A DNA stretch of 64,000 nucleotides from Candidatus Moranbacteria bacterium RIFCSPHIGHO2_01_FULL_55_24 (GTDB lineage: Bacteria; Patescibacteriota; Minisyncoccia; Moranbacterales; UBA1568): the NCBI GenBank assembly GCA_001786575.1, contig MFRW01000011.1, positions 22,201-86,200 of the forward strand, read 5' to 3'. This document shows, one piece after another, positions 872 through 9,512 of the stretch. A program made the translations under genes and the position numbers. The notes under the pieces are model-generated. The model did no database searches. It was not told where the DNA came from and saw only the letters and a program-made list of their open reading frames with translations. Numbering within the stretch: position 1 is the first letter of the stretch; every line of letters begins with the position of its first letter.

Positions 872-1014
872 AGATTTCCTTCCTTACATGCATTTAAAAG
901 CCTCCATTCCTCTTTATGCAGTATAGGCAAAAAAGAGGGCTCCGTCAAAGCAGCCGTTTCCCCGGAAAATGCGAGGATAAAGCCTCCAAATAAAGCTTCC
1001 TTGGCTTGTTTTTA

Positions 1015-1023
1015 TGGTATACT
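1015..1023 (+). promoter_or_regulatory. extended -10 promoter element TGGTATACT upstream of the ATG at 1034
   Basis: TGnTATACT motif 11 nt upstream of the first ATG of the 847-aa ORF; the same TGGTA-type extended -10 recurs at 9430 and 29655. Confidence 0.4.
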
Positions 1024-1033
1024 ATGGGAGTAT

Positions 1034-3544
1034 ATGGCGGAAAAAAAACGCGAACAAAAAATGCGGGCAATTTCTGATCTCGACCGGGTCATCACCGATA
1101 TTCTCGTAGCGGAAAAACGCTCCAACGAACCGTTCATCAAGACATTCAATTATGTCGGTGAAAACGTTTCGAAACTCGATCTCGGCACCCTGGTCGGGGT
1201 ATTCGAGGTGGACGAAAAGAGCGAAGACTCCGCCTACATCGTCAACTTCCTGGCTTCCGTAGCCAAAAAAGAATATTTCAGCAATCCGCGGCGCGGAGCC
1301 ATCGAGAGTTTCGAAGCGGCGCTTCACAAGATAAATGTCGCATTAGCCGAACTCGTGAAGCACGGCAATATCGCCTGGCTGGGGAAATTCCATGGAGCGC
1401 TCGGCGTATTCGAGAAGAACAACTTCCATTTTTCCGTCAGCGGCGAAGCCGCCATCCTGCTTTTCAGGAATAATTCCTTTGTAGAAATCAGCGAAGGGCT
1501 GGCCTCCCCGGAAGCCCAGGAGCATCCGCTCAAGACGTTCGTAGAAGTTTCAAGCGGACGGCTTATGCTCGGGGATACCCTTATTTTATCCTCCCCGGAA
1601 CTCCAAGCGCTCTTTTCAGAGGACAGTCTCGCGAAAAACCGCGAGCGCCTCGGCATTCCCGGCTTCCGCCAATTCTTGAAGACCGCGCTCGTAAATGAGC
1701 TCGATATGGCCGCGACTCTCGTGGTAGATATCACCGAGAAGGACTTTTCCGCCCAAGAAAAATCCAGCCCCGCTAAACGCAGAGCAAAGAAGGAGGATTC
1801 TCCGGATGCTGCCTCATTCAATCCCTTCAGCCAACAGGCCTTCACCCCGAAGCCGAAAGAACGCTCCGAGGAAGACGTATTCCAGCCGCATGCCGAGCCG
1901 GCGCGTTCCGAATACACCGACAGCAAAACCGGACATATCTATGTCCAAGGGGAACTCCCGGAGGATATCCCGTCCCATCGCGCTTTCTTTGACGAACTCT
2001 CGCTCCGTTTCCAGGGTCTCGCCCTCGTCATCGGAAAATCATCTTCCCAGTGGGGCCGTTCGCTCCGCAAAACAAGGAAGCAGGCAGCGCTCTCGCTCTG
2101 GGTTCTTTCCCGTAATGGGAAGGAAAAGACGCATCAGCTCACCAGAAAGAGCCGGCGCGCTCTGCAGAAGCTTTGGCGCTCGCTTGAGGAGAAACGTCAG
2201 AAGAAAGCAGCTCCCACGGAAACATACTCCCCGGAAACATTCGAAACGCTCCCGGAAGAGCCCTCTTTTGCCGATCTTGATTTCAAAGCGCCCGAAAAAC
2301 CCGCCTCACTCGAAAGAGACCTCGAGGAGCCGTTATCCGACAGACAAGAGACTAGTTTCCGTCCGCAAGCGGCTCCTTTTCTCCCAAAAAGCCGCGAACA
2401 TGGAGCACTCCAGCAGAAGCTCCGCTCCTTTTATACCCAGGAAGGCTCCCGGAGGCCTTCTTCCGTTCCTGGAGAATCACCCTCTCTCCGCCAAGCGCTT
2501 CCAAGAGGAAACACTTTTCTGGCATCCCTCCTTGCTTCAGCCAAAAAAACTCTCCGGAAGACAAGCCTGCTCTTGAGGACTCTTCCTCGAACACTCGCTT
2601 CGTTCGATATCTCTCCTCTCAAGAAGTGGCATCTCGCTCTCGGGCTCGTGATCGCCATCAGTCTTTCGGCTTTTTTCCTCCTCAAAGATGATGGGCTCGA
2701 AAGCCGGAATGCAGACGAGTCGAACCTGAACCCCCAAGAGAATTCCCTCTCTCAAGAAGCAAACGGCGAAAAGAATGCGAACGTTCTCGGAGCGCCGACC
2801 TCTCTCGAAAAAGGGCTGCCTGAAGAAACGCGTCTCGTGACCTTGAATGGCCAGCCCTATGCCGTGACCCGGGATGCTCTCATCGATGTCCGCGAAAACA
2901 AGAGCTACTCTCCCCCGACCGGAGGAAACGCCGTGCGCTTCGCGGCAGCGATGGAAGACCTGCAGCTCATCTTCCTCTTCACCGAAAACAAGCTGGTCTA
3001 TGCCTGGAGTCCTATCAGTAAGACTTTCTCCCAGAATGAGATTGCGCTTCCCGAAAATTCCTCGGTCGGCGGCATCGGGACCTACCTCACCTATCTCTAT
3101 GTATTGGATACTTCGAACGATCAGATCTACCGCTTCCCCCGGGCCGAAGGCGGTTTCGGAGCGCCCACGAACTGGTTCCGAGAATCAGTGACTATAGAAG
3201 AGAATGCCCTTTTTGCCGTCAACGAGAGCATCATCATCACGCTTACGCCGAGCGAGATAAAAGGCTTTTTCCAGGGAAAGACCAATGCGACTTTCGAGAT
3301 GCCTGGAAGCGAAGCTTCCCTCGCAGCGCTTTATACCGATCCTGACACGCCGGAGATCTACGGACTCGACAGCAAAGGGAAACGTATCATCGTCTGGGAT
3401 ACCAGCGGCAAGATCATCGCAGAGTATTTCCATGAGGCGCTTGCCGGAGCCCGCGCACTTTCGGTCGATCCTAAAAGCAAGACTTTCTTCGTAGCCGGGA
3501 GCGATGGGGAAATCCTCTCCTTCTCTCTCGGAAACGGGATCTAG
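1034..3544 (+). CDS. single-pass membrane protein: N-terminal SpoIIE/RsbU-type PP2C-like domain (catalytic motifs partly degenerate), long S/R/K/P/E-rich linker, TM helix, C-terminal extracytoplasmic repeat domain
   Basis: Manual motif alignment of the N-terminus (first 220 aa) to RsbU/SpoIIE PP2C blocks: VGVFEVDEKSEDSAYIVNFLASV vs IGDVSGKGVPAALFMAM; FSVSGEAAILLFRNNSFVEI vs CNAGHNPPLLVRNNGSIELL; LMLGDTLILSSPEL vs LEKGDILLLYTDGV; LDMAATLVVDI vs YDDITCLVVKV. The TM helix is WHLALGLVIAISLSAFFLL. The C-terminus carries repeated Y..D/W.D-like strands. TTG at 1001 is an alternative start; ATG 1034 is preferred. Confidence 0.6.
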   Translation: MAEKKREQKMRAISDLDRVITDILVAEKRSNEPFIKTFNYVGENVSKLDLGTLVGVFEVDEKSEDSAYIVNFLASVAKKEYFSNPRRGAIESFEAALHKINVALAELVKHGNIAWLGKFHGALGVFEKNNFHFSVSGEAAILLFRNNSFVEISEGLASPEAQEHPLKTFVEVSSGRLMLGDTLILSSPELQALFSEDSLAKNRERLGIPGFRQFLKTALVNELDMAATLVVDITEKDFSAQEKSSPAKRRAKKEDSPDAASFNPFSQQAFTPKPKERSEEDVFQPHAEPARSEYTDSKTGHIYVQGELPEDIPSHRAFFDELSLRFQGLALVIGKSSSQWGRSLRKTRKQAALSLWVLSRNGKEKTHQLTRKSRRALQKLWRSLEEKRQKKAAPTETYSPETFETLPEEPSFADLDFKAPEKPASLERDLEEPLSDRQETSFRPQAAPFLPKSREHGALQQKLRSFYTQEGSRRPSSVPGESPSLRQALPRGNTFLASLLASAKKTLRKTSLLLRTLPRTLASFDISPLKKWHLALGLVIAISLSAFFLLKDDGLESRNADESNLNPQENSLSQEANGEKNANVLGAPTSLEKGLPEETRLVTLNGQPYAVTRDALIDVRENKSYSPPTGGNAVRFAAAMEDLQLIFLFTENKLVYAWSPISKTFSQNEIALPENSSVGGIGTYLTYLYVLDTSNDQIYRFPRAEGGFGAPTNWFRESVTIEENALFAVNESIIITLTPSEIKGFFQGKTNATFEMPGSEASLAALYTDPDTPEIYGLDSKGKRIIVWDTSGKIIAEYFHEALAGARALSVDPKSKTFFVAGSDGEILSFSLGNGI

Positions 3545-6015
3545 GCAGCCTCCTGGATCTTGATGCGTTCCAGAATCTCGCTCTTCACGATAGAAGCATC
3601 GCGCCCATAGCGGAGACGCGAGAGCTCTTTTAAGGCATTCGCCACTTCCTGATTGCCATTCGATGGCGGATACGTCTTCATATTGAAAGGCTTCGTGAGC
3701 TCATTGTTGAGAAGGAGCCTCACGAAACAGCGGTAATTGTCTACATTGACCAGGTCCTGCGCGGAAAAGACCGGTGCGAACTGCTTTTCCAGGAATTCCG
3801 CATCATCCGGTCCTACGCGGAAGGAAATGAGCGAACCCACATTCCCGAATACCGCTTTGGATATCTCTTCCTTCAGCTGGCCGATGAACTGGTGTGCCAG
3901 GACCAGGACCAGGCGGTATTTCCGAGCTTCGGAGAGGATCTGTGCGATGGAAGTCGTCGTCACATTCTGAAACTCATCCAAGTAAAGGTAGAAATCCGAA
4001 CGCTCTTCTTCGGGCATATCGACGCGCGACAGAGCCGCCATGAGGATCTTTCCGACGATGATCATACCGAGAAGGCGCGCATTGATCTCTCCCAGACGCC
4101 CTTTGGAGAGATTCACTAAGAGGATTTTCTTCTGGTCCATGACGTCGCGGAAATTGAAGGCGCTCTTCTGTTGCGCGATAATCGGCCGCATCAGGTCGTT
4201 TGAAATGAAAGCGGTGAGCTTCGAAGTGATATAGGGAACCATATTGGCCAGAGCGGCTTCGCCTCCGGCCTTCTCGGCTTCTTTCTGCCAGAAATCCCGT
4301 ACGATCGGGTTCTCGCAGTGGGAGAGTTTCATGCGCCGGAAATTCTCATCCGCAAGCACTTTCGGGATCTCCATGAGCGTCGAACCGCTCTCGGGATGTT
4401 CCATGACCAAGAGCATGGCGTTCCGCATATACTGCTCGAACATCGGGCCTCCCGTCGCCTTCATATCGTAGAGCTGGTCGAAGATGCCGATCATCTCGTT
4501 GATGACGAACGTTTTCTGCTCGGGGTGAGCCGGGTCATACTCGAGCATATTCATACCCAGAGGCTTGCCGGTGTCTGCCGGATCGAAGACGATGACATCT
4601 TCGGCACGCTCTTTCGGGATGGACGCGAGGATATCCTCTATCGCATCGCCATGCGGATCGATGAAGCAAAACCCTTTGCCGGCTCGGGCATCCTTCTTCG
4701 CCATTTCCTGGAGGAAATTCGACTTTCCGACGCCGGTCTGCCCCACCACATACATGTGGCGGCGGCGATCGGCATCCGTGATACGGATCTCCGTCTCCGT
4801 ACCGCGGTAGTCATTGAAGCCGAGGAGCATCCCTTCATTCGGGATGTTGATCGGCGGAGCAGCCGCTCCGGCCTTCAGCCACTTGATCTTAGGCGTAGCC
4901 GTCGTAGAGATCGGGAAGTGGAAAATGCTCGCGAGCTCTTCGGTGTTCAGAAGGAAAGAATGGTCTTCATCGAAATTCCGGAAAACATAGTGGAAAGCCG
5001 CTTCGCGCGTCTTGATCCGCTTCCTGACGCGGAAACGGTTGATATCGTGGTTCTCGAACTGACCGAAGGCGCTCTCCATGTGTCCGAGGATCTCATCGGC
5101 GCGAGACTGGGTATCAGCAGAAGCCAAAAGGCGCAGATTGACGCGGAAGGCGCTCTTGCTCGTCTTCTGGTCGATCGCTTTCACAAGCTCTTCCTCGTGA
5201 GGCGTCAGCATGACAGGCTTCTTCTCGCGATCAAGCGTGCCCTTCTTATTGGCCGGACTAAGAGCGCTCATGATATCCTTTCCCATTTCGTTGCCGGCTC
5301 TCTGCATCGTTTTGCCTTTCTTCAGATCCTGGATCCGCTTGCCTTCCTGGATATGCCGGGCGATCTGCTTGCCCTCTTGGCGCCAGACGGCTCCGGCCGG
5401 AGCGAGCACCAGCTGCATCACCGCGCCTTCGCTCGCGGTGTTGAGCTTGCTTAATGAATTCGATATCCCGTTGAGCGGATCGACCCCGAGATCGCGATAG
5501 GTCACGAGCGGAAGAGCGTGATGATGAGCAAGCTCCAGTTCTGCCACCGCTACCTTGCTCCCCGGCGCGAAAATCGTGTAGTCAGGGACGCGCTCTATGG
5601 TCGCTTCCGGGAAAAAGCTATGCACCTGTTTCTCGACGCTTTCCCGGAAGCGCTTCGGGATGCCGAGATAGAAAAAGATCTCCTCGCTCGAAGAGGGATT
5701 GGCGATTTCGAAAACGATCGTCGGAGCATGATAGAGGAGGCGCGAAAGGAAATTCCCCGGATGCTTCAGATTGGAAAGCGAAACCAGAAGCTGCTCCATG
5801 GCGAGAATCTCTTCTTTCCAAGCATCAGCATTCTGGCCGGCATCCTGCTTGCGGACAACTTGAACGACCTCCAGTTCCATCATGAGCGACTGGTTCACCT
5901 GCCGCCGGAAGCGTATGAAGCTCCTCGCGACCAGAAACCCCCCGCTCCCCAGGGTGACGAACCCCAGGAACCAGGTAAAAGGAATGAAAATACTATTGAA
6001 ATCGAACTGATTCAT
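3541..6015 (-). CDS. membrane-anchored P-loop ATPase of the type IV coupling protein (VirD4/TraG/TraD, TraG-D_C-like) family with an unusual ~420-aa N-terminal domain
   Basis: N-terminal hydrophobic anchor IFIPFTWFLGFVTLGSGGFLVARSFI; Walker A VVGQTGVGKSNFL; Walker B YLYLDEFQNV (the DEF variant typical of T4CPs); downstream LVLAHQFIGQL matches the T4CP xQSxxQL motif. A GGAGG SD lies 4 nt upstream of the ATG. The stop overlaps the convergent gene by 4 nt (CTAG). Confidence 0.6.
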   Translation of the reverse strand: MNQFDFNSIFIPFTWFLGFVTLGSGGFLVARSFIRFRRQVNQSLMMELEVVQVVRKQDAGQNADAWKEEILAMEQLLVSLSNLKHPGNFLSRLLYHAPTIVFEIANPSSSEEIFFYLGIPKRFRESVEKQVHSFFPEATIERVPDYTIFAPGSKVAVAELELAHHHALPLVTYRDLGVDPLNGISNSLSKLNTASEGAVMQLVLAPAGAVWRQEGKQIARHIQEGKRIQDLKKGKTMQRAGNEMGKDIMSALSPANKKGTLDREKKPVMLTPHEEELVKAIDQKTSKSAFRVNLRLLASADTQSRADEILGHMESAFGQFENHDINRFRVRKRIKTREAAFHYVFRNFDEDHSFLLNTEELASIFHFPISTTATPKIKWLKAGAAAPPINIPNEGMLLGFNDYRGTETEIRITDADRRRHMYVVGQTGVGKSNFLQEMAKKDARAGKGFCFIDPHGDAIEDILASIPKERAEDVIVFDPADTGKPLGMNMLEYDPAHPEQKTFVINEMIGIFDQLYDMKATGGPMFEQYMRNAMLLVMEHPESGSTLMEIPKVLADENFRRMKLSHCENPIVRDFWQKEAEKAGGEAALANMVPYITSKLTAFISNDLMRPIIAQQKSAFNFRDVMDQKKILLVNLSKGRLGEINARLLGMIIVGKILMAALSRVDMPEEERSDFYLYLDEFQNVTTTSIAQILSEARKYRLVLVLAHQFIGQLKEEISKAVFGNVGSLISFRVGPDDAEFLEKQFAPVFSAQDLVNVDNYRCFVRLLLNNELTKPFNMKTYPPSNGNQEVANALKELSRLRYGRDASIVKSEILERIKIQEAA

Positions 6016-6038: not shown

Positions 6039-6455
6039 TTAGCGCAAAGCGTTCCCCTTATCGAGTGCGGCATGAAACTGCTCCGCAAGCTCATCATGCA
6101 TCATATCGAGCGCATAGAAATCCTTGAGCGAGCGCGCTACTTGGACCGCGTGCGGGACCCCCTTGGTTTCTGCCAGCGAAACGAGGTGCGTGATGCGGCT
6201 TTCCTCATCAAGCGCGGCGGTCCGGTCCGCATCGCTCCTCACTTCCTGAATCGGTGCGACCGGATTCGGGGCATGTGCCTCCACCCTTTTCAAAAGCGAC
6301 TGGAAATCCCTGTTTTCCGCAGGAGCTTCTTCTCTCTTCACCTCATGCTCATAGGAGACAGCGGCTTCCAGCGTCTCTTCACGGATTTCCTCTGCTGGAG
6401 CGTCGAGGATATCCTCCTGTTCATGGTTAATCCCATTGCCGAACTCTTCTGCCAT
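6039..6455 (-). CDS. small acidic hypothetical protein (138 aa), co-operonic with the ATPase
   Basis: ORF with strongly acidic composition (many E/D) and predicted helical character; 23-nt gap to the downstream ATPase gene. Confidence 0.5.
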   Translation of the reverse strand: MAEEFGNGINHEQEDILDAPAEEIREETLEAAVSYEHEVKREEAPAENRDFQSLLKRVEAHAPNPVAPIQEVRSDADRTAALDEESRITHLVSLAETKGVPHAVQVARSLKDFYALDMMHDELAEQFHAALDKGNALR

Positions 6456-6472: not shown

Positions 6473-6790
6473 TTACAGCCCTCCCAGATTTTTCTTCATC
6501 TCTTCCGTGAATTCCTGCGCGACTTCGCGCACAAAGACATTGTATCCCGGAATGCTCTTTTCGAAAAAGGCTTCGATTTCTTCCGCAGAAGCGCCCCGGT
6601 CCAGAAGACCTTCGTATTCCGTCACGCCGCTCTCGCCGATTTTTTCCATCGTCGCGAGAAAGAGACGTTTGATGAACGCTTCTCCCATCTGTTCGAGCAG
6701 CGCATCCCGGCGCTCTTCGGGCACCTGTTCAAGCTGGAACTCTTCTGCAAACTGCTTCTTCAATGCTTGGAGATCTGGAGTCATACGCAA
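6473..6790 (-). CDS. small acidic hypothetical protein (105 aa), co-operonic
   Basis: ORF with acidic, helical composition (EEFQLEQVPEERRDALLEQMGEAF...); 12-17 nt gaps to its neighbours. Confidence 0.5.
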   Translation of the reverse strand: MRMTPDLQALKKQFAEEFQLEQVPEERRDALLEQMGEAFIKRLFLATMEKIGESGVTEYEGLLDRGASAEEIEAFFEKSIPGYNVFVREVAQEFTEEMKKNLGGL

Positions 6791-6802
6791 AAAATATATG
6801 GT

Positions 6803-9406
6803 TTAGAATTTGAAATCGAAATCCGGATCAGCCATGCGGCGGCGCATGATGAGCGTCGTGATCCGGAGCGTGTAGCTATTGATGTCTTCGCGGCTCTTGA
6901 GATCCGCTGCTTTGCCGAACTGTTCCCGTGCCGCATCGGTAAACGATGCCAGCCGCTCCATCTGGCTCGGGTGGAGAGGATTCAGGCGGCGGCTGTAATC
7001 ATATTCCGGGTTCTCCAGCAGATGTTCATGCACCCGGAGCACCCGGTCCACCTTGATGCCTCCGAGGTTCTTCGCTCCGAAGCTGAATTGATCCGTTCCG
7101 AGAGACTGGATTTCCGGCGTTTCGAAGATATGCATGCGCGTCTGGATCAGCTCTTCTTTGGCTGTGCTGAAAAGATCCGGATGCTCCTTGAAAAAGGCTT
7201 TGTGGTCGCTCAATTCCTGGAGCTCCCGCGCGCTCAAGTCCTGCTCCGACCAAGGAAGACTCTTTTCTCCTGTCCCTCCGAGATTTTCCGGGAGGAGATT
7301 TTCCGGCTTTCCTTCGGCCTGGCCCGGGGTATCTACGGGCGTCTCATGATTCTCCAAATAGGTATCGAGATCGAGCGAGGTTTTCGCTACTGCTTCCACC
7401 GGCTCTGCTCCAGCCGCTTCGAGAGCTGCTACAGCCTTGCCATCGAGAATCGCTTGAGTCTCTTCCGGAGAGAGAATCTTCTCAAGCGAGAGCGTATCTC
7501 CGACATGGATAGCATTGATATCACCGCTCGGGAATCCGGCTGCCTGGAGTTCTTCCGGCGAAAGAGTCGGTAGTTTATTGGCAATCGCATTCTCAAGCGC
7601 CTGGATGACGCGTGCCTTCTCTCCCGGATCCATATCGGCCGGCAGACGCGCTTCGAGCACTCCCCAGAGGCCCTTGCCGCTATCGGCAGCGGTTACCAGA
7701 TGTTCCGCGAGCAGAGCCTTCGGAGACGTTTCTGCTACCGCCTGCGCCACGTTGTCAGGATCAGAGATTCCTTCTGCAATAGCATGCGGAACTCCTTCCG
7801 CTGGAAGTTCCGGGGCTATCGGAGAAGGAACCGCCTCATCAGCCAGATCAGGAGCCGGCTCGGCTGCGATCGCTTCATCAAGGGCGTTTTGCGGCGGCGT
7901 TTCAGGTGCAAGTGCCGGCTCGGTTGCCTCTGCTCCCGGCGTATCCGCTTGCAGAATATCCGAAGCGAAAGCTATTCCCGTACCGAAGGTTACAGCTGCT
8001 CCCTTGCGGAAAAGCGCGGCCCGCTTGGCTTGCTGCATCTTGCTGTCGAGCGAAGCGATGTCTTTCGTCAGAAGTTCTTTGAGTCTTTCAAAAGATTCAG
8101 CGGTCGGCAGAGCTTCGGAAAAAGTGTGTGTCTCTCTGGTAAGCGCCAAGAGTTCTTCATCGATCTCCTTTTCAGCCGCTTTCTCGGCCCGTTTCTCCGC
8201 ATATCCTTGCATGAGGACTTCTCCCGTTACTGCGCCGCCGGCACCGGCCATGAAGCGCCGTAATGTCACGATTGCGCCTCCCAGCGCGGCTCCGCCAGAA
8301 AGAGAGAGCGCTCCTGCGCCAGCGAAGCAAGCCGCTGCCAAAGCGAACTTCTGCGGACGTGAAAGGCTGTTATAGGCCTTGCCAAGACGCTCGTATGCAT
8401 CCAGGGCCCTCCCGCCCAGACCTTTCCGCTCCATGCGCACATCAGTCCGCGTTGCTACGAGATTCTTCGCTTCCTCGAATTTGAAATAGCGGAGGAGCGC
8501 CGCCATCTCGTGCTTGAGTTCGGTTCCTTTCAGTCCGCTTTTCTTCAGCTGCTCCAGCTCGAGCTCCTGAAGAGCAGTCAGTGCGCCCTCGTACTGCTCC
8601 CTCCGATAGCGCGTATCCTGGTCCTCCTCCGTGTCGCTCTTCATGCGGAAAAACGCCCGGAGCTGCTTCCAGGCATGTGATTTTTCGTAGTCTTCTTCCG
8701 CGAAGCGCCTCCGCATATCGGAAACCTCCTCCCGGCGGAGAGCGATCTCTTCGTTAAGATTCCTGGCCGGAACGGATTCCTTTTCTTTCTCGAGAGACTC
8801 GACAGACGCCGGTTCGGCTTCAGTCGGCTTCGGAACCTCCTCGGTCTGCGCTTCCGGCTCGGGAGCGGATTCAGGCTTCACGGCGTTCCCCTCTTCCCGG
8901 TCGGAAACTTCCTCCGCAACCAGAGGTATCTCGACACCAGGAACAGTCTCTTCCTGCTTTGAAGGCTTTTTCCCGCGCCGCCGCAGCGAAAGTATCTTTC
9001 CTTCCTCCGCATCCGGCATCGGCTCCGAAGGCATGGTCTCCGGCTGTGGCGTTTCCGGGCCCGAAGACTGCTCTTCTCCCTTAGGATGTTTCAAAAATGT
9101 GTACTTTTCCCTCACCTCGGACTGGCTTCCGAAAAGGAGCGTGCTTCCTGGGTGGAGCGCATCGTCTTCGCCTTCTACCACATGCGCTTCCACACCTCCT
9201 TGATCCGAGACGCTGTCGATACGTATCTCCGTGCCTTCCGCAGAAGTGAATCGATCTCCGACACGGAGCCCCTCTCCTTCCGCTGATTTTTCGGGCAAGT
9301 TCTGTTCGGGATTTTTCCCAGATGCTTTTTCCGGAGAATCAAAAACAGCCTCCGCTGATTCTGCTTCAGTCATTTTCCTTGCGCCGGCAGCTTCTCCTTC
9401 GGGCAT
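6803..9406 (-). CDS. large (867 aa) acidic, largely low-complexity protein with glycine/alanine-rich hydrophobic segments and a C-terminal globular region; first gene of the operon
   Basis: N-terminal ~330 aa E/P/S-rich; hydrophobic G/A-rich stretch FALAAACFAGAGALSLSGGAALGGAIVTLRRFMAGAGGAVTG and a second one, AAVTFGTGIAFASDIL; A/P/E-rich linker; ~250-aa C-terminal domain with no recognisable motif. Confidence 0.55.
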   Translation of the reverse strand: MPEGEAAGARKMTEAESAEAVFDSPEKASGKNPEQNLPEKSAEGEGLRVGDRFTSAEGTEIRIDSVSDQGGVEAHVVEGEDDALHPGSTLLFGSQSEVREKYTFLKHPKGEEQSSGPETPQPETMPSEPMPDAEEGKILSLRRRGKKPSKQEETVPGVEIPLVAEEVSDREEGNAVKPESAPEPEAQTEEVPKPTEAEPASVESLEKEKESVPARNLNEEIALRREEVSDMRRRFAEEDYEKSHAWKQLRAFFRMKSDTEEDQDTRYRREQYEGALTALQELELEQLKKSGLKGTELKHEMAALLRYFKFEEAKNLVATRTDVRMERKGLGGRALDAYERLGKAYNSLSRPQKFALAAACFAGAGALSLSGGAALGGAIVTLRRFMAGAGGAVTGEVLMQGYAEKRAEKAAEKEIDEELLALTRETHTFSEALPTAESFERLKELLTKDIASLDSKMQQAKRAALFRKGAAVTFGTGIAFASDILQADTPGAEATEPALAPETPPQNALDEAIAAEPAPDLADEAVPSPIAPELPAEGVPHAIAEGISDPDNVAQAVAETSPKALLAEHLVTAADSGKGLWGVLEARLPADMDPGEKARVIQALENAIANKLPTLSPEELQAAGFPSGDINAIHVGDTLSLEKILSPEETQAILDGKAVAALEAAGAEPVEAVAKTSLDLDTYLENHETPVDTPGQAEGKPENLLPENLGGTGEKSLPWSEQDLSARELQELSDHKAFFKEHPDLFSTAKEELIQTRMHIFETPEIQSLGTDQFSFGAKNLGGIKVDRVLRVHEHLLENPEYDYSRRLNPLHPSQMERLASFTDAAREQFGKAADLKSREDINSYTLRITTLIMRRRMADPDFDFKF

Positions 9407-9429
9407 ATCATTTTATTTTCTCCTGTTTC

Positions 9430-9438
9430 TGGTATAAT
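9430..9438 (+). promoter_or_regulatory. extended -10 promoter TGGTATAAT for the downstream glycosyltransferase operon
   Basis: Perfect TGnTATAAT in an AT-rich divergent intergenic region, 75 nt upstream of the ATG at 9513. Confidence 0.45.
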
Positions 9439-9466
9439 TTTAGCATAACAAACAAAAAACAAAAAA

Positions 9467-9502
9467 GGATCTGCGTCTGCTTTTTCCATACTTTGCAGAT
9501 CC
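9467..9502. repeat. perfect 8-bp inverted repeat GGATCTGC..GCAGATCC (20-nt spacer) flanked by A-tracts, in the 5' leader of the GT-C gene and in the divergent promoter region
   Basis: Read directly from the sequence: ggatctgc at 9467-9474, gcagatcc at 9495-9502. Confidence 0.6.
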
Positions 9503-9512
9503 GGAAAAATCT

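Follow-up and report, generated by a model that had tools for sequence, protein, structure and literature searches.

A large, fast-evolving protein as a candidate envelope-spanning partner of an orphan VirD4-like ATPase in Moranbacteria

Introduction

The locus examined here raises the question of what a large acidic protein of no known family does at the head of an operon whose last gene encodes a VirD4/TraD-like ATPase. The window, that is, the whole stretch of DNA that was analysed, is 64,000 nucleotides long and belongs to contig MFRW01000011.1 of Candidatus Moranbacteria bacterium RIFCSPHIGHO2_01_FULL_55_24, one of the Moranbacteria, which are very small bacteria of the candidate phyla radiation. 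The gene in question encodes 867 amino acids (aa) and runs from ATG to stop at positions 6803-9406 on the minus strand. A 2025 survey found virB4 near only 148 of the 5,713 VirD4-like genes that it counted in Patescibacteria, and left the function of these genes open (PMC12102498). Neither VirB4 nor any other type IV secretion system (T4SS) gene was found in the 64-kb window, in agreement with the figures of that survey, and none was found in the 8-10-kb flanks listed for the window and for the locus of one relative (L001, below). The ATPase is called an orphan here in the sense that no type IV secretion channel genes lie nearby.

We tentatively propose, with a chance of being right that falls a little short of its chance of being wrong, that the 867-aa protein is a resident, envelope-spanning and fast-evolving partner subunit of a four-gene Moranbacteria module built around this ATPase. 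The evidence for the gene, its family, its conserved position and its domain structure is presented first, and the other functions that have been considered for it are weighed against that evidence as it is given.

Results

The open reading frame (ORF) has a product identical to the NCBI hypothetical protein A2808_01375, from a Candidatus Moranbacteria metagenome-assembled genome (MAG) of the Rifle aquifer series, and gene calls on 13 contigs, which come from several data sets, give exactly this 867-aa protein. Its isoelectric point (pI) is 4.76, in keeping with the acidic product described in an earlier note on this DNA, and Glu and Ala make up 13.4% and 12.9% of its residues. The same note had set down about 60% of the protein as low-complexity sequence rich in Glu, Pro, Ala and Ser. 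This was an overstatement: the four residues together account for 39% of the protein, only three 50-aa blocks reach 50%, and 306 of the 867 residues (35%) have a predicted local distance difference test score (pLDDT) below 50 in the AlphaFold2 model.

Codon usage was scored in all six frames as a log-likelihood, with 19 housekeeping genes from the window as the training set. For the whole ORF the annotated frame scored 0.149, against -0.045 or less in the other five, and it was also the best frame in each of six sub-regions. The score is lower than that of typical genes (~0.32), mainly because of the disordered parts of the protein, and the GC content at third codon positions (GC3) is 0.59, compared with 0.71 in the ATPase gene and 0.78-0.79 in the divergent PMT genes. 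The first codon positions have an unusually high GC content (0.68), which reflects a composition rich in E, A, G, D and V. The low codon score and GC3, together with the biased composition of the N-terminus and the linkers, might be taken as signs of a non-coding or mis-called low-complexity ORF. That explanation, which the earlier note had itself raised, is refuted and its probability is close to nil: the annotated frame wins in every sub-region, three domains are modelled by AlphaFold2 with pLDDT >90, the architecture is common to hundreds of relatives, and the position in the operon is conserved. The ORF is a real coding gene.

This gene stands at the head of a row of four that all run in one direction, with gaps of 18, 17 and 23 bp between them, and so does lead an operon, as had been supposed. 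The second gene (6473-6784, minus strand) encodes a 103-aa acidic protein of the DUF5663 family (Pfam PF18908, E = 7.8e-6), and its position is conserved. The third (6039-6455, minus strand) encodes a 138-aa acidic protein with a conserved helical C-terminal part and no family match. The fourth (3541-6015, minus strand) encodes an 824-aa ATPase of the FtsK/HerA/VirD4 kind, which carries DUF8128 and a single P-loop domain, and which has one N-terminal hydrophobic anchor and is almost wholly cytoplasmic behind it. Its matches to the coupling-protein domains TrwB_AAD_bind, T4SS-DNA_transf and TraG-D_C, and to DUF87/HerA, are weak but consistent, and its nearest solved relatives are TrwB and DotL, around the P-loop only. 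It also matches phrog_5156, a PHROG of unknown function, over its full length (E = 3e-90), and relatives 22-25% identical to it are present in the Bacillus phages CP-51, JL and Shanette and in phage G. Two further observations on the ATPase are a match to the PADLOC model 'mad8' (E = 1.7e-14) and a GSGG sequence in its N-terminal hydrophobic segment, which recalls the SGG turn in the hairpin of the 867-aa protein.

Two other identities were considered for the small proteins and their operon. A WXG100-like identity of the DUF5663 protein was rejected, as no family or PDB match was found. A Type VII-like module (EssC/EccC with WXG100 proteins) does not describe the locus either, the ATPase having a single P-loop domain with coupling-protein matches and the small proteins matching DUF5663 or nothing. 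Literature searches found no paper describing DUF5663, DUF8128 or this operon.

A word-index homology search found one relative only, and an exhaustive HMMER search with a two-sequence profile then revealed a family. The relative P0002 is 31% identical over aa 187-495 and lies in a locus with the same gene order (L001). The exhaustive search gave 310 clusters at E <= 1e-3 and 98 at E <= 1e-30 (50%-identity representatives), with lengths from ~600 to 1,858 aa. The ten clusters whose names were looked up were unnamed or 'hypothetical protein', came from Moranbacteria or 'Patescibacteria group' MAGs, and had one to four members each at 90% identity. In nearly all members a variable N-terminus leads into a core that holds the hydrophobic segments, and this is followed by a small alpha/beta domain and then by a C-terminal domain. 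A hidden Markov model (HMM) of the core, built from aa 205-490, matches 145 of 150 retrieved proteins, and the features of this core are a YN-x(5,6)-K motif, an uncharged GG hairpin, an RR pair, a KRAxxxRK motif and a Gly-rich anchor helix.

No match to the 867-aa protein was found in Pfam, NCBIfam, PHROGs or PADLOC, nor in the phage database. A known housekeeping family, which the earlier note had named as a finding that would tell against it, is absent from the matches in these collections. When 52 full-length relatives were run against Pfam, no more than five weak matches came up, each in a single member. Sequence searches of the PDB gave nothing with the 867-aa protein alone, and only weak LytE and Hbl-L1 matches with profiles. 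A match to Protein A (E = 4e-7) was discarded as an artefact, being a short motif summed over repeated domains, each of them insignificant alone. Foldseek against the PDB returned nothing at E < 1, so that none of the three structured modules matches a solved structure. The family is unnamed and undescribed, and no fold relatives of it could be detected among the structures solved so far.

More than 4,400 relatives of the ATPase were found at E < 1e-20. The best 120 of them are without exception full-length and share 69-79% identity with it, and across Moranbacteria the identity is 62-79%. Synteny was sampled in 80 species-level loci around ATPase orthologues, and the 64 loci with at least 4.5 kb of upstream sequence were counted. 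The order family member, DUF5663 protein, small acidic protein and ATPase was found in 48 of these 64 informative loci, as it was in the window and in L001, and in 14 of the 64 only the small protein and the ATPase were recognised. In four loci (L052, L057, L059 and L084) a protein of 1,344-1,602 aa occupies the upstream position. The one that was read, encoded at 3448-7482 in L052, keeps the hydrophobic hairpin, the anchor helix and a type-c C-terminal domain, is without the LysM-like domain described below, and falls under the threshold of the core HMM. No DUF5663 gene was detected in the sub-clade formed by these four loci and about ten further ones, in which the ATPase is ~65% identical. 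The functional tie to the adjacent ATPase that the earlier note had suggested is thus supported by gene order in 48 of 64 loci; whether the protein serves as substrate, pore or scaffold is a choice that sequence does not decide.

Across 55 loci, the median identity to the window proteins was 70% for the ATPase, 44% for the small acidic protein, 42% for the DUF5663 protein and 28% for the first protein, this last figure applying only to its 351-aa best segment. The first gene is thus by far the fastest-evolving of the four. Variation is also seen in the arrangement of its outer domains. Three C-terminal types (a, b and c) and two forms of the alpha/beta domain (a short one with GDSVWKI, and a long one with GLWG and an insertion) were distinguished, and all six combinations occur. 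On a rough neighbour-joining tree, outer-domain types switch between loci with neighbouring ATPases (L009-L088), which suggests that domains are exchanged at the disordered linkers.

AlphaFold2 was run on the whole protein with 101 family sequences and gave a mean pLDDT of 69.5. The confident parts are aa 210-487, which are all helical, aa 560-665 (pLDDT ~95), and aa 720-867, also all helical (pLDDT ~95); aa 1-46, 78-208, 487-558 and 666-714 are disordered. A separate second model of aa 555-867 agrees with the full-length model.

The N-terminal region (aa 1-208; 8783-9406, minus strand, as for all parts of the protein) is acidic, mostly disordered (pLDDT <50 for aa 1-46 and 78-208), hypervariable between species and predicted to be cytoplasmic. 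In a jackhmmer search among 150 family members its first 204 residues matched only themselves. It contains a small three-stranded beta element at aa 52-76 (9179-9253; strands 52-54, 60-66 and 72-76), modelled with moderate confidence (pLDDT ~70); by eye, short beta units of this kind are repeated in P0002. A basic motif, RRRGKK, is present at aa 142-147 (8966-8983), and it recurs in the family: RRR was found in the N-terminal region of 55 of 131 members, against 8.9 expected when each N-terminus was shuffled. The motif is typically [GS]-RRR-[GKR] followed by more K/R, inside N-termini that are disordered and otherwise unalignable (P0123-P0270). It could be a recognition or nucleic-acid-binding patch, and it is the only feature seen that might bear on a translocation signal of the sort expected in a substrate of a coupling ATPase.

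The N-terminal region is followed by a conserved helical bundle (aa 209-349; 8360-8782), the region that aligns with P0002. It consists of helices at aa 215-253, 263-290, 294-327 and 329-346, with R232, D239, Y272 and Y345 nearly invariant, and is predicted to be cytoplasmic. Next comes the Gly/Ala-rich hydrophobic hairpin (aa 350-399; 8210-8359), made up of a first arm (aa 350-366), a GG turn (aa 367-375), a second arm (aa 376-382), and then an RR pair and an amphipathic Gly-rich helix. Charged helices (aa 400-465; 8012-8209), again predicted to be cytoplasmic, connect the hairpin to the last hydrophobic helix and end in the K/R-rich sequence KxQxxKRAxxxRK. That helix, the third hydrophobic one (aa 466-487; 7946-8011), has nearly invariant G475 and G477 and is predicted to be a membrane anchor running from the inside to the outside.

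The two hydrophobic stretches that the earlier note had flagged as possibly re-entrant or membrane-inserting are located at aa 354-394 and 470-485, and their conservation, which has a functional look, supports this part of its description. Kyte-Doolittle means over 19 residues exceed 1.0 only at aa 351-393 (maximum 1.52) and aa 463-487 (maximum 1.12). Across 101 aligned members, the first segment comprises ~30 uncharged residues with a Gly-rich turn, in which G371 and G372 are nearly invariant, and has K/R flanks on both sides. The YN-x(5,6)-K motif is conserved before it, with Y345 and K353 nearly invariant, and an RR or KR pair and an amphipathic Gly-rich helix follow it. Before the hairpin, K/R residues outnumber D/E (3.45 vs 1.5), and the RR pair lies after it; around the last helix K/R stand at 5.9 against 2.2 D/E on the near side, and at 1.6 against 3.5 on the far side.

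The positive-inside rule states that flanks rich in K/R stay cytoplasmic. Applied to these charges, it places both ends of the hairpin inside, takes the last helix from inside to outside, and puts the C-terminal 380 residues outside, so that the N-terminal half of the protein is predicted to lie within the cell and the C-terminal half beyond the membrane. The pattern of the first segment is the signature of an in-in helical hairpin or a re-entrant loop. Two full spans would need longer arms, and the turn is modelled with low confidence, so that a re-entrant or half-membrane hairpin would be the most likely form. The predicted anchoring, with the N-terminus in and the C-terminus out, makes a resident subunit of the membrane more likely than a substrate for secretion.

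The hydrophobic segments and the coupling-type ATPase next door had led the earlier note to compare the protein with VirB6/TrbL, the channel subunits of T4SSs, and the Gly/Ala-rich character of the segments agrees with such a comparison. VirB6/TrbL proteins, however, are polytopic, with at least five spans, and have their own Pfam family, whereas the 867-aa protein has three hydrophobic segments only, and neither it nor its 52 relatives gave a TrbL or VirB6 match in Pfam or NCBIfam. Neither VirB4 nor any further T4SS gene is present in the window, and no fold match was obtained. Membership of this family is refuted, the profile, the number of spans and the neighbouring genes all speaking against it, and a role as a VirB6/TrbL-like channel subunit is highly improbable.

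The same hairpin has also to be considered from the opposite side, as a part that would enter the membrane of another cell. In that case the ATPase would export the protein, with its two small acidic partners as chaperones or adaptors, and the Gly/Ala hairpin would insert in the membrane of the host, the bacterium that carries the Moranbacteria cell. The combination of a long helical bundle and a hydrophobic hairpin of helices is reminiscent of the ClyA-family toxins (Hbl-L1, NheB, MakA, XaxB, SmhB and AhlB), which share with the 867-aa protein an uncharged hairpin of 30-50 residues rich in Gly, Ala and Val. The family profile matches Bacillus Hbl-L1 (E = 0.0043) exactly on the Gly/Ala/Val-rich head hairpin, an independent core alignment placed MakA and Nhe-L1-like chains on the same hairpin (E = 1.2-1.6), and XaxB, SmhB, AhlB, ClyA and MakA chains appear in the non-significant part of the Foldseek results. 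Small secretion adaptors are well known from the DotL-IcmSW system and from type III chaperones, and the small acidic proteins beside this coupling-type ATPase resemble them. The rapid, mosaic evolution of the outer domains would also suit interaction with a host.

The Hbl-L1 match is heavily biased, however, none of the toxins reaches significance in the fold comparison, and matches of this sort are generally drawn by long helical queries. The resemblance to pore-forming toxins is one of composition and general shape, and is not evidence of homology. The ClyA-family toxins are small, soluble and secreted, whereas the charge pattern of the 867-aa protein is that of a resident of the membrane; it has a further anchor and an extensive C-terminal half, and no significant similarity to them in sequence or fold. 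Export and insertion into a host membrane is thus regarded as unlikely. A more elaborate form of the same idea is decidedly unlikely: the four genes would make up a minimal, Patescibacteria-specific device for contact-dependent export without a VirB channel, in which the adaptors would hand over the large protein, its hairpin would enter the host membrane, and the swappable LysM-like and C-terminal domains would set the specificity for host or wall.

The part of the protein that is predicted to be extracytoplasmic begins with an acidic, disordered linker rich in Pro, Ala and Glu (aa 488-558; 7733-7945). An alpha/beta domain (aa 559-665; 7412-7732) follows, which is confidently modelled as a divergent LysM-like beta-alpha-alpha-beta unit with a long second helix and an inserted helix. 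A second linker, disordered in the AlphaFold2 model (aa 666-719; 7250-7411), leads to an all-alpha C-terminal domain (aa 720-867; 6806-7249) of sequence type c and without a known fold match. The earlier note had described a C-terminal domain of about 250 aa; the region is indeed structured, and consists of two confident domains (aa 559-665 and 720-867) joined by a disordered linker of about 50 aa instead of a single one. Of the aromatic and His residues that it had picked out as conserved-looking, the aromatic ones were upheld, as W581, F625 and Y845 are among the nearly invariant residues of this half together with D575, L645 and G831; no His is conserved family-wide.

In many relatives the alpha/beta domain has the pattern x-V-x-K-G-D-S-V-W-K-I-A-G, a helix, and L-K-x-G-E-x-I-x-F, which is LysM-like. 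When 22 family versions of the domain were scanned alone, Pfam LysM (PF01476) gave sub-threshold matches in ten of them (best E = 0.0025), and each of the other Pfam families was matched by one member only. A LysM repeat of LytE was matched with E = 0.0038 by the family profile and with E = 0.078 by a domain-only profile. The likeness to LysM extends to the x-V-x-K-G-D-S-V-W-K-I-A sequence, a second helix and a final strand of the pattern h-x-x-G-x-x-h-x-h, and the AlphaFold2 model has two short paired strands flanking the helices. The version in the 867-aa protein is more divergent, with VTAADSGKGLWGVLEARL ... IHVGDTLSL, the long second helix and the inserted helix. Its own aa 559-665 had no Pfam LysM match, no family version exceeded the gathering score, and the domain was not superposable on solved LysM domains with their beta-alpha-alpha-beta fold. 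The domain is possibly derived from LysM, and its membership of that family is not established. The predicted location of the C-terminal half, outside the membrane, fits a wall-binding LysM-like domain.

The window as a whole is an ordinary Patescibacteria chromosome, with a ribosomal-protein cluster and genes for EF-G, MreB, MurA, FtsA, FtsZ, ComEC, GyrB, HisRS and an LCP-family protein. Around the operon lie genes for two PMT-type glycosyltransferases, a POTRA (FtsQ-like) protein, holB, GT4 glycosyltransferases, MreB and MurA, with FtsA and FtsZ further along. This setting among wall and division genes brings up a further function, that of a division or envelope scaffold similar in logic to FtsN or DamX: the protein would be bitopic, with a tail in the cytoplasm and, beyond a long linker, a domain that binds the wall, and would act with an FtsK-like DNA pump at the septum and not in secretion. 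The membership of the ATPase in the FtsK/HerA superfamily, with only its P-loop region matching TrwB and DotL, and the chromosomal, single-copy-like and highly conserved nature of the module are consistent with this. FtsN, DamX and DedD do share with the 867-aa protein a cytoplasmic N-terminus, an anchor, a long low-complexity linker, a small outside domain of the wall-binding type and a wall/division neighbourhood. They differ from it in that the 867-aa protein has no SPOR domain, a far larger conserved cytoplasmic helical core, an extra C-terminal domain and a strict linkage to a coupling-type ATPase. Moreover, the best family matches of that ATPase are to the coupling-protein domains and not to FtsK, core division proteins seldom evolve so fast or swap their end domains, and the neighbourhood may merely mirror a conserved genome order. 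A place in the division machinery therefore has a low probability.

Several other features of these loci were noted. An 847-aa ORF on the plus strand (1001-3544; 836 aa as called in L002) converges on the ATPase gene; its middle is rich in Ser, Pro and Lys, a single hydrophobic segment is present, and towards the C-terminus the protein looks beta-rich. No Pfam or NCBIfam match was found for it, and only a weak PADLOC match, to PD-T4-6 (E = 0.0011). The 106-bp intergenic region between the 867-aa gene and the divergent PMT_2 gene (9407-9512) is AT-rich, with TAAAAT/TATGCT resembling a -10 element and, ~15 nt ahead of the ATG, a GGAG. Promoter and terminator scans gave counts at chance level, and a consensus promoter scan found nothing on the minus strand at 9407-9512. 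In the genome of P0002 (L001, 5001-9992), two extra genes, of 684 and 960 aa, lie between the divergent PMT glycosyltransferase genes and the family member; neither product has a Pfam match or belongs to the family. About 30 of the 80 loci come from third-party annotation MAG records titled 'uncultured Bdellovibrionales' or 'uncultured Pseudobdellovibrionaceae' (for example L010, L011, L013 and L020). These carry the Moranbacteria-type operon, with ATPases 62-75% identical, and the records look taxonomically mislabelled.

Discussion

The function that we favour for the 867-aa protein, a resident envelope subunit working with the ATPase, could be pictured as follows. The acidic, disordered N-terminus with its RRRGKK motif and the helical bundle (aa 209-349 and 400-465) would lie in the cytoplasm, where the ATPase and both small acidic proteins could reach them. 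Two parts would enter the membrane: the uncharged Gly/Ala-rich segment (aa 350-399), which would dip into it as an in-in hairpin, and the helix at aa 466-487, which would span it. Outside, the C-terminal 380 residues would present an acidic linker bearing the divergent LysM-like domain, which would probably grip the cell wall, and the interchangeable all-alpha end domain would be shown on the surface. Built in this manner, the protein would be a stator or scaffold that links a motor in the cytoplasm to the wall or the cell surface, and might possibly be the exit site for cargo moved by the ATPase. The analysis shows that the gene is real, how its product is divided into domains, that it belongs to a family, that its gene order is conserved and that its rate of evolution differs from that of its partners; the topology, the wall binding, the contact with the ATPase and any role in transport are what we infer.

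The closest known counterparts in general arrangement are the partners of coupling proteins, such as the adaptors IcmS, IcmW and LvgA with DotL, and the wall-anchoring scaffolds of the PrgK/TcpG type in the conjugation systems of Gram-positive bacteria. The likeness consists in a VirD4/TraD-like ATPase as neighbour, small acidic proteins, a membrane anchor and a probable wall-binding module outside. The 867-aa protein is, however, not related to them in sequence or fold and has no hydrolase domain, and no VirB4, VirB6, VirB8 or relaxase genes are present in the window. The ATPase of the module differs from the classical coupling proteins as well, in carrying DUF8128, which is absent from them.

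Several points weigh against this proposal. The hydrophobic segments of the 867-aa protein itself are only marginally hydrophobic (the Kyte-Doolittle maximum of 1.52 given above), though those of relatives reach ~2.1. The arms of the hairpin fall short of two full membrane spans, and the turn at aa 367-373 has pLDDT <50, so that the number of crossings is uncertain. Conserved gene order is evidence of linkage and not of mechanism. Finally, the small acidic partners and the pore-toxin-like composition of the hairpin would also fit a system of substrate and chaperones. The probability that is left after the proposal and the alternatives discussed in the Results is assigned to functions outside all of them.

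The general logic of the proposed module, a membrane accessory protein beside a coupling-type ATPase, is already known and does not by itself amount to a new mechanism. In Moranbacteria, one orphan VirD4-like ATPase is locked into a conserved four-gene operon, and this provides it with named candidate partners. Three structured, expressible domains, together with predictions of topology, wall binding and interaction, offer a handle on the role of this orphan ATPase. If the outer domains mediate contact with the host cell or with the wall, the family could be used to mark host specificity within a lineage that is uncultured. If the export device described above were to prove true, the operon would represent a new kind of secretion or translocator system underlying an epibiotic lifestyle.

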